From: Escherichia coli
GTDB lineage: Bacteria; Pseudomonadota; Gammaproteobacteria; Enterobacterales; Enterobacteriaceae
NCBI RefSeq assembly: GCF_003334305.1
Contig: NZ_QOWS01000082.1
Reading direction: 5' to 3' (one strand)
DNA: 366 nucleotides
The position numbers and the translations under genes are program-made. Below are positions 1 to 366 of this stretch, one piece after another; the stretch's first letter is position 1; every line of letters begins with the position of its first letter. A model generated the notes under the pieces. That model had not been told where the DNA came from. It made no database searches and saw only the letters and a list, made by a program, of their open reading frames with translations.

Positions 1-62
1 AATTTGAGAGACTCACGAACAACTTTCGTTGTTCAGTGTTTCAATTTTCAGCTTGATCCAGA

Positions 63-75
63 TTTTTAAAGAGCA
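63..75 (-). promoter_or_regulatory. boxA-like antitermination motif of the rrn spacer (NusB/NusE binding-site type)
   Basis: Minus-strand sequence TGCTCTTTAAAAA (reverse complement of plus 63-75) differs at one position from the rrn leader boxA TGCTCTTTAACAA. It sits just downstream (in the transcript) of a hairpin, giving the boxB-then-boxA order typical of rrn and lambda nut antiterminators. Functional assignment rests on established knowledge of E. coli rrn operons. Confidence 0.7.
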
Positions 76-76
76 A

Positions 77-114
77 ATATCTCAAACATCACCCGAAGAT
101 GAGTTTTGAGATAT
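77..114 (-). promoter_or_regulatory. boxB-like RNA hairpin upstream of boxA in the spacer transcript
   Basis: Minus-strand RNA ATATCTCAAAACTCATC-UUCG-GGTGATGTTTGAGATAT folds into a 17-position stem capped by a UUCG tetraloop. It has one G-U wobble and a 2-nt internal mismatch (C-U, A-G), with 14 Watson-Crick pairs. Pairing was checked by hand. The boxB role is inferred from its position next to boxA. Confidence 0.5.
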
Positions 115-148
115 TAAGGCAGGTGACTTTCACTCACAAACCAGCAAG

Positions 149-224
149 TGGCGTCCCCTAGGGGATTCGAACCCCTGTTACCGCCGTGAAAGGGCGGTGT
201 CCTGGGCCTCTAGACGAAGGGGAC
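149..224 (-). tRNA. tRNA-Glu (anticodon UUC), complete 76 nt with encoded 3' CCA
   Basis: Reverse complement of 149-224 is GTCCCCTTCGTCTAGAGGCCCAGGACACCGCCCTTTCACGGCGGTAACAGGGGTTCGAATCCCCTAGGGGACGCCA. It has a 7-bp acceptor stem (GTCCCCT/AGGGGAC), anticodon loop CUUUCAC with anticodon UUC, T-arm GGTTCGAATCC and terminal CCA. This is identical to E. coli tRNA-Glu as I recall it. In E. coli the spacer copies are gltT/U/V/W; which copy this is cannot be determined from the window, so the symbol is left empty. Confidence 0.97.
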
Positions 225-309
225 GTATCAGTCTGCTTCGCAAGACGCCTTGCTTTTCACTTTCTATCAGACAATCTGTGTGAGCACTTCAAAGAACGCT
301 TCTTTAAGG
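225..309 (-). other. 16S-23S internal transcribed spacer, segment between the 16S 3' end and tRNA-Glu (85 nt)
   Basis: Lies between the mature 16S 3' end (310) and the tRNA 5' end (224) on the same strand. Minus-strand sequence begins CCTTAAAGAAGCGTTCTTTGAAGTGCTCACACAGATTGTCTGATAGAAAG..., which resembles enterobacterial spacer sequence as I recall it. Contains no ORF and is part of the pre-rRNA transcript. Confidence 0.9.
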
Positions 310-366
310 TAAGGAGGTGATCCAACCGCAGGTTCCCCTACGGTTACCTTGTTACGACTTCACCCC
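310..366 (-). rRNA. rrs: 16S ribosomal RNA, 3'-terminal 57 nt (partial; gene continues beyond the right edge of the window)
   Basis: Reverse complement of 310-366 reads GGGGTGAAGTCGTAACAAGGTAACCGTAGGGGAACCTGCGGTTGGATCACCTCCTTA, the canonical 3' end of bacterial 16S rRNA including the anti-Shine-Dalgarno CCUCC and terminal UUA. Match to the E. coli 16S terminus is from memory, not a database search. Confidence 0.96.

Follow-up and report, generated by a model that had tools for sequence, protein, structure and literature searches.

A 366-nt Escherichia coli sequence is a segment of an rRNA operon with a short Glu-type 16S–23S spacer

The stretch of DNA analysed here, referred to as the window, is 366 nt long; its positions are given as w1 to w366, and the RNA sense is the minus strand. 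Read on that strand, the window consists of the last 57 nt of the 16S rRNA gene, an 85-nt spacer, tRNA-Glu(UUC) with an encoded CCA, and a 148-nt spacer leading toward the 23S rRNA gene. The only tRNA that ARAGORN finds is tRNA-Glu(UUC), which shares its strand with 16S; there is neither tRNA-Ile nor tRNA-Ala. An earlier note on this DNA had given the order on the minus strand as 16S tail, spacer, tRNA-Glu and spacer, and this is borne out at base resolution by Rfam, by ARAGORN and by an annotated locus of identical sequence. The two Rfam families that the note proposed to look for, SSU_rRNA_bacteria and tRNA, both score above their gathering scores on the minus strand. The note was right about the order of the two spacers, but they are not featureless, as they contain a strand of the 16S leader–trailer helix, a nut-like boxB/boxA arrangement, covarying hairpins and a match to the Rfam family StyR-44 (Table 1). 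These spacer features are all part of the known pre-rRNA processing and antitermination machinery.

Table 1. Features of the window, listed in the direction of transcription
Feature	Positions	Strand	Basis
3' terminal 57 nt of 16S rRNA	310..366	-	Rfam RF00177, annotation, alignment A1
Trailer (3') strand of the pre-16S leader–trailer helix, RNase III substrate	262..305	-	Predicted duplex with leader
5' leader of the spacer tRNA	225..261	-	Position between helix strand and tRNA 5' end
tRNA-Glu(UUC) with genomically encoded CCA, gltT/U/V/W type	149..224	-	ARAGORN, Rfam, identity with K-12
Conserved hairpin just 3' of the tRNA; variable stem, 7-nt loop GUGAAAG at w127–133	118..142	-	RNAalifold, covariation
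boxB-like long hairpin directly upstream of the spacer boxA	76..115	-	Inverted repeat I1, covariation
Spacer boxA, UGCUCUUUAAAAA	63..75	-	Alignment A1, K-12 comparison, literature
Highly conserved single-stranded block, UCUGGAUCAAGCUGAAAAUUGAAAC; boxA-to-boxC-like linker	38..62	-	Near-invariant A1 columns
Variable hairpin (CACUGAACAAC-GAAA-GUUGUUCGUG)	14..38	-	Per-sequence folds
Conserved GAGUCUCUCAAAUU at the window end	1..14	-	Alignment A1
Rfam StyR-44 (RF01830) match	1..71	-	Model positions 1–71 of 107, cut by the window end

Megablast against complete E. coli genomes gives a match in all 5426 of the 5426 genomes, at a median of seven places per genome, and many chromosomes match over 366/366 nt at 100% identity. 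The annotation beneath these matches is '16S ribosomal RNA' and 'tRNA-Glu'. The rrnC operon of strain ATCC 8739 (locus L001) is identical to the window, which corresponds to L001 6001–6366, between the annotated 16S and 23S genes; the gene order there is yieP, 16S, tRNA-Glu, 23S, 5S, tRNA-Asp, tRNA-Trp, hdfR, which is that of rrnC. In both L001 and K-12 the sequence beyond the window runs on into 23S, and in L001 the 23S gene begins 45 nt past the window end. Records from Salmonella, Klebsiella and Enterobacter in the phage and plasmid collections match at ~90–95% identity. We aligned the window block by block with 45 Enterobacterales spacers (46 sequences, alignment A1). It aligns to Glu-type rrn spacers over its full length and each of its sub-segments is a known or structurally supported element, which upholds the claim that every base belongs to a pre-rRNA.

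Comparison with the spacers of K-12 places the window precisely. All the sequence-level features that define the short Glu-type 16S–23S spacer class of E. coli are present. The short Glu-type operons rrnE (gltV) and rrnC (gltU) have the same order and the same lengths, with an 85-nt spacer between 16S and the tRNA and a 76-nt tRNA-Glu, and their tRNA–23S spacer is identical to that of the window. K-12 rrnE matches at 365/366 bases, w289 being the only difference, and K-12 rrnC at 364/366. In the long Glu-type operons rrnB and rrnG the 16S trailer and tRNA-Glu are ~86 nt further apart, and in rrnG the loop of the boxB-like hairpin also differs from the window. In rrnA, which is of the Ile/Ala type, w78–250 is replaced by two other tRNAs. 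Common to all the K-12 types are the end of 16S, ~60 nt at the start of the trailer, and the stretch from boxA to the window end (w1–77).

The 16S segment is matched by the Rfam model SSU_rRNA_bacteria (RF00177) at w310–366(-), over model positions 1477–1533 of 1533 and with 56.9 bits against a gathering score of 50 (E = 9e-16). The mature 3' end of 16S rRNA lies at w310, where the end of the model (1533) aligns, and the 16S annotation of L001 agrees. The segment carries helix 45 and the anti-Shine–Dalgarno sequence CCUCC (w313–317) and is invariant across the 46 aligned sequences.

The trailer strand has its partner in the boxC-containing leader, ~90–130 nt upstream of 16S. The RNA duplex predicted for leader and trailer of L001 is ~40 bp long (dG -57.7 kcal/mol), and an equally long duplex is kept in ~25 other Enterobacterales loci, namely those with enough upstream sequence. 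The 16S-proximal half of the helix is altered on both strands, from CUCGAAGAUACGGAUUCUU / AAGAAGCGUUCUUUGAAG in E. coli to CUCACAAGACGGUAUCAC / UGAGAUGCGGUUGAGUG in Photorhabdus. One position, w289 (RNA position 78), is the sole non-conserved column within the otherwise invariant core of the trailer strand in alignment A1: the window shares an A with K-12 rrnA, the base is C in three other K-12 operons (rrnC, rrnE and rrnG), and rrnB has T. This suggests that the position is unpaired or bulged. RNase III reportedly cuts at +33 (Young & Steitz, 1978), which would be at about w276/277. It has been reported that the leader–trailer helix holds the RNase III site and that trailer nt 1548–1570 (w282–304) are essential for 30S biogenesis (PMC10250234).

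The tRNA scores 60.1 bits with the Rfam tRNA model (RF00005) at w152–224(-), against a gathering score of 29, and is identical to K-12 gltU, gltV, gltT and gltW. Its leader holds a small hairpin, GCAAGGCGUCUUGC (w240–253 in the MFE fold), and the part-conserved sequence GCGUCUUGCGAAGC (alignment A1); as is general for tRNAs, the leader would be removed by RNase P. Rfam hits to SNORD24, ceN33, Tymo_tRNA-like and plastid psbI-rps4 were rejected as chance or tRNA-like echoes (E 0.19–0.59, far under their gathering scores). The Glu spacer of Mangrovibacter phragmitis (L029:7638–8078, + strand; A1 columns 223–261) is 39 nt longer at the 3' end of tRNA-Glu, through an insertion that repeats AGGGGACGCCA and resembles a second copy of the end of the tRNA or an att-like scar.

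Two hairpins lie between the tRNA and the spacer boxA, and both are supported by covariation in an alignment of 25 sequences. The hairpin just 3' of the tRNA has compensatory changes in 5/7 stem pairs and its GUGAAAG loop is invariant among the 25 sequences. The boxB-like hairpin is formed by inverted repeat I1, with 16-nt arms; of its 15 pairs, ~95% paired in the alignment, 12 show compensatory changes, and slid controls gave 34–42% pairing. Taken jointly, the two hairpins are 92% paired with double changes in 17/22 pairs, values that none of 500 shuffles reached. The GUGAAAG hairpin is absent from the Ile/Ala-type spacer in the K-12 comparison, and no documented role for it was found in Rfam or in the literature searched.

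The spacer boxA that follows has a core, GCTCTTTAA, which is invariant in 46/46 aligned spacers. It is one base apart from the leader boxA, TGCTCTTTAACAA, in L001 and is common to all seven K-12 operon types compared, including Ile/Ala. There is thus a boxA consensus preceded by a covariation-supported hairpin (w76–115), which is the arrangement of a nut-like site. Nut-like boxB–boxA(–boxC) sites sit in both the 16S leader and the 16S–23S spacer and nucleate the NusA/B/E/G–SuhB–S4 complex (PMC8632103), boxA being the NusB–NusE binding site of the rrn antitermination complex (PMC8632103, PMC10250234). On the basis of this literature the spacer boxA would bind NusB–NusE, assembling the rrnTAC (PMC8632103). 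The leader element (boxB–boxA–boxC) likewise has a hairpin and then boxA, UGCUCUUUAACAA in the leader and UGCUCUUUAAAAA in the spacer, whereas in the nut sites of phage lambda the order of boxB and boxA is reversed (PMC8632103). The resemblance does not extend further downstream: the leader boxC (UGUGUGGG) belongs to the 16S leader–trailer helix, and the block after the spacer boxA differs from it in sequence. By analogy with the leader element, this block (w38–62) would be contacted by NusA, SuhB and S4 (PMC8632103).

The rest of the window belongs to the leader of pre-23S rRNA. The hairpin at w14–38 was folded sequence by sequence, and RNAalifold on a MAFFT alignment missed it because its length varies. 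Among 31 distinct homologous segments, every one of the 29 from Enterobacterales gives a stable hairpin, with energies of -10 to -27 kcal/mol, and the two Orbaceae segments fold only weakly (-2.5 and -4.0 kcal/mol). The stems are unrelated in sequence and differ in length among genera. Many Enterobacter, Citrobacter, Kluyvera and Pantoea spacers have a hairpin that is ~25 nt longer, E. coli having the short version, and the extended hairpins share a conserved apical loop, CUCCGUAAUAAG (loci L009, L021, L025, L030, L033, L035, L064, L065, L075, L079 and L086).

At the window end GAGTCTCTCAA is nearly invariant in alignment A1, and UCUCUCA (w5–11) is complementary to UGAGAGA of the 23S 3' trailer (L001 9318–9360). 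The sequence GAAAAUU (w43–49) can pair with AAUUUUC at the window end (w1–5 region), as in the outer stem of Rfam StyR-44, in whose consensus structure line GCUGAAAAUU is the 5' strand of that stem. GAAAAUU has an alternative partner, GAUUUUC, in the same part of the 23S trailer (L001 9318–9360). The pairings of w43–49 and of the window end are possibly mutually exclusive in the maturation of 23S rRNA. Both the pairing of GAGUCUCUCA with the 23S trailer and the StyR-44 outer stem rest on complementarity; the bases are nearly invariant, and their 3' partners lie beyond the window. Some spacers have a GC-rich, partly palindromic insertion of ~125 nt that falls between GAGUCUCUCA and the 23S leader–trailer strand (A1 columns ~580–710), just outside the region homologous to the window; they are L014, L063 and L082 (Morganella), L051 (Izhakiella) and L066 (Prodigiosinella). 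The insertion may be an ERIC/IRU-like repeat or an additional helix of pre-23S.

The same region is covered by the StyR-44 match, which scores 81.5 bits against a gathering score of 54 (E = 5.7e-13). StyR-44 occupies the same genomic position, upstream of 23S; the window has only the 5' two-thirds of it, the last 36 model positions lying beyond. It was reported as an RNA fragment of 109 nt that lies upstream of 23S in each of the seven operons (PMC2943607) and is the same RNA as sYJ118 (PMC3511261). As everything from boxA onward is common to all the K-12 spacer types, StyR-44 is a seven-copy element.

Is this RNA (w1–71 and beyond) also a bona fide trans-acting regulator, and more than a by-product of processing? 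Its northern signal is stable and growth-phase-regulated in Salmonella Typhi and E. coli (PMC2943607), sYJ118 rises 8-fold under tigecycline or tetracycline in Salmonella (PMC3511261), and w1–14 and w38–75 are highly conserved in sequence. However, the conserved parts are accounted for by boxA, factor binding and pre-23S folding, and induction by drugs that target the 30S subunit is expected from disturbed rRNA processing. Additionally, no target has been reported, and both papers allow that the RNA may be a metastable intermediate or by-product of rRNA maturation (PMC2943607, PMC3511261); the discoverers of StyR-44 themselves described it as possibly just a metastable processing intermediate (PMC2943607). 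We consider a regulatory role quite unlikely. Somewhat broader is the proposal that either the StyR-44 fragment has a regulatory role of its own or the GUGAAAG hairpin is a specific, unnamed recognition element, which may be read, for example, by a nuclease involved in processing or by an assembly factor that acts on spacers of the Glu type. This too we regard as unlikely, and if true it would add only a little to what is known of a very well-studied locus.

Even less can be said for a hidden gene or a mobile origin. Eight ORFs of at least 20 aa are present in the window. The longest (44 codons, + strand, w186–320) runs antisense to tRNA-Glu and the 16S trailer and is open in the closest relatives, Enterobacter, Citrobacter and Kluyvera; no other exceeds 28 aa. 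However, its GTG start falls within the antisense of the tRNA, the + strand has no promoter-like site, and the residues that are conserved follow from the conserved RNA on the opposite strand. Its frame is broken, by stops or by length changes that are not multiples of three, in Photorhabdus, Morganella, Xenorhabdus, Pantoea, Mixta, Edwardsiella and others. That it encodes a small protein is extremely improbable, and the statement that the window has no unexplained coding capacity stands, since outside the closest relatives most genera do not keep the only ORF above 28 aa open and in frame. No promoter-like site was found on either strand of the window. There is a single terminator-like site, on the + strand, and it mirrors a hairpin of the sense strand. 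Matches in 15 records of the phage collection, 97 in PLSDB and at 10 places on E. coli plasmid replicons might suggest that an rrn fragment was captured by a mobile element, phage or plasmid and that the window stems from there. The best 'phage' matches, however, are short unannotated records (the top full-length ones are 1.6–7.3 kb) or Salmonella chromosomal scaffolds, and the best 'plasmid' matches are replicons of 0.65–5.4 Mb with 4–8 rrn copies, or short unannotated contigs, which fits mislabelled host rrn DNA. The window itself has no internal repeat or integration boundary: no direct-repeat family was found in it beyond chance-level 9–13-mers, and its inverted repeats are the tRNA arms and the spacer hairpins. 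We regard a mobile origin as very improbable. The earlier note had reported no repeat array or mobile-element boundary, and the chance-level short repeats, the expected hairpins and the full-length homology to rrn spacers agree with it. The note had also named two observations that would speak against its reading, a part of the window that fails to align to rrn spacers and a conserved ORF overlapping the spacer; we looked for both and found neither.

The window almost certainly belongs to an rRNA operon with a short Glu-type spacer, such as rrnC or rrnE, in E. coli (or Shigella), and shows it as the reverse complement; we found no data that contradict this explanation. What we observed directly are the identities and coordinates of the elements, their complementarity and the covariation, which backs the helices across ~25–45 Enterobacterales spacers; the enzymes and the binding of factors in the following scheme we infer from the literature. 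The window is transcribed within the 30S pre-rRNA, of which it is an internal part. The trailer strand, which follows the 3' end of 16S, pairs with the leader to give the long leader–trailer helix; assembly of the 30S subunit requires this helix, and RNase III would cut it. Next, tRNA-Glu would be released by RNase P together with enzymes that trim its 3' side. The boxB-like hairpin and boxA would reload or maintain the antitermination complex of Nus factors, SuhB and S4 for the transcription and folding of 23S. Finally, the w38–62 block, the variable hairpin, GAGUCUCUCAAAUU and the 45 nt beyond the window make up the pre-23S leader, which experiments have detected as the StyR-44/sYJ118 fragment after processing. 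The window is thus an ordinary rRNA operon spacer of E. coli, already known, with no undescribed system in it. The region is among the best-characterised non-coding stretches of E. coli, and assigning each base to known pre-rRNA elements prevents a false lead. The result has value only as a negative control, and it confirms that the earlier note had recognised canonical sequence.

Several database records that came up in the searches deserve mention. Five phage records span the whole window (OR844775.1, OR850364.1, OR850889.1, PV358070.1 and PQ800148.1; 1.6–7.3 kb, unannotated) and OR845267.1 contains half of it only, which suggests host rrn DNA; one of these six, a 'Staphylococcus phage' record, carries an enterobacterial spacer at 94.8% identity. 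The PLSDB entries NZ_OL790696.1, NZ_CP141089.1, NZ_CP134663.1 and CP125156.1 are 4.8–5.4 Mb long with 7–8 rrn copies and are chromosomes mislabelled as plasmids. In the GTDB representative set, a record named 'MAG: Oxalobacter sp.' (L072, JAHAYL010000010.1) has a Glu-type spacer one base off the window, and one named 'Chryseobacterium sp. 18061' (L074, CACSKA010000057.1) has a Glu-type spacer matching the enterobacterial pattern; both are probably due to contamination or mis-binning. Finally, in the 'complete' E. coli genome NZ_CP168269.1 the sole match (H35, 4832255–4832325) is to the first 71 nt, that is the 16S tail and 14 nt, and adjoins a gene of the Ail/Lom family. Such a match points to an rrn assembly that was collapsed or truncated, or else to a piece of 16S at the edge of a prophage.
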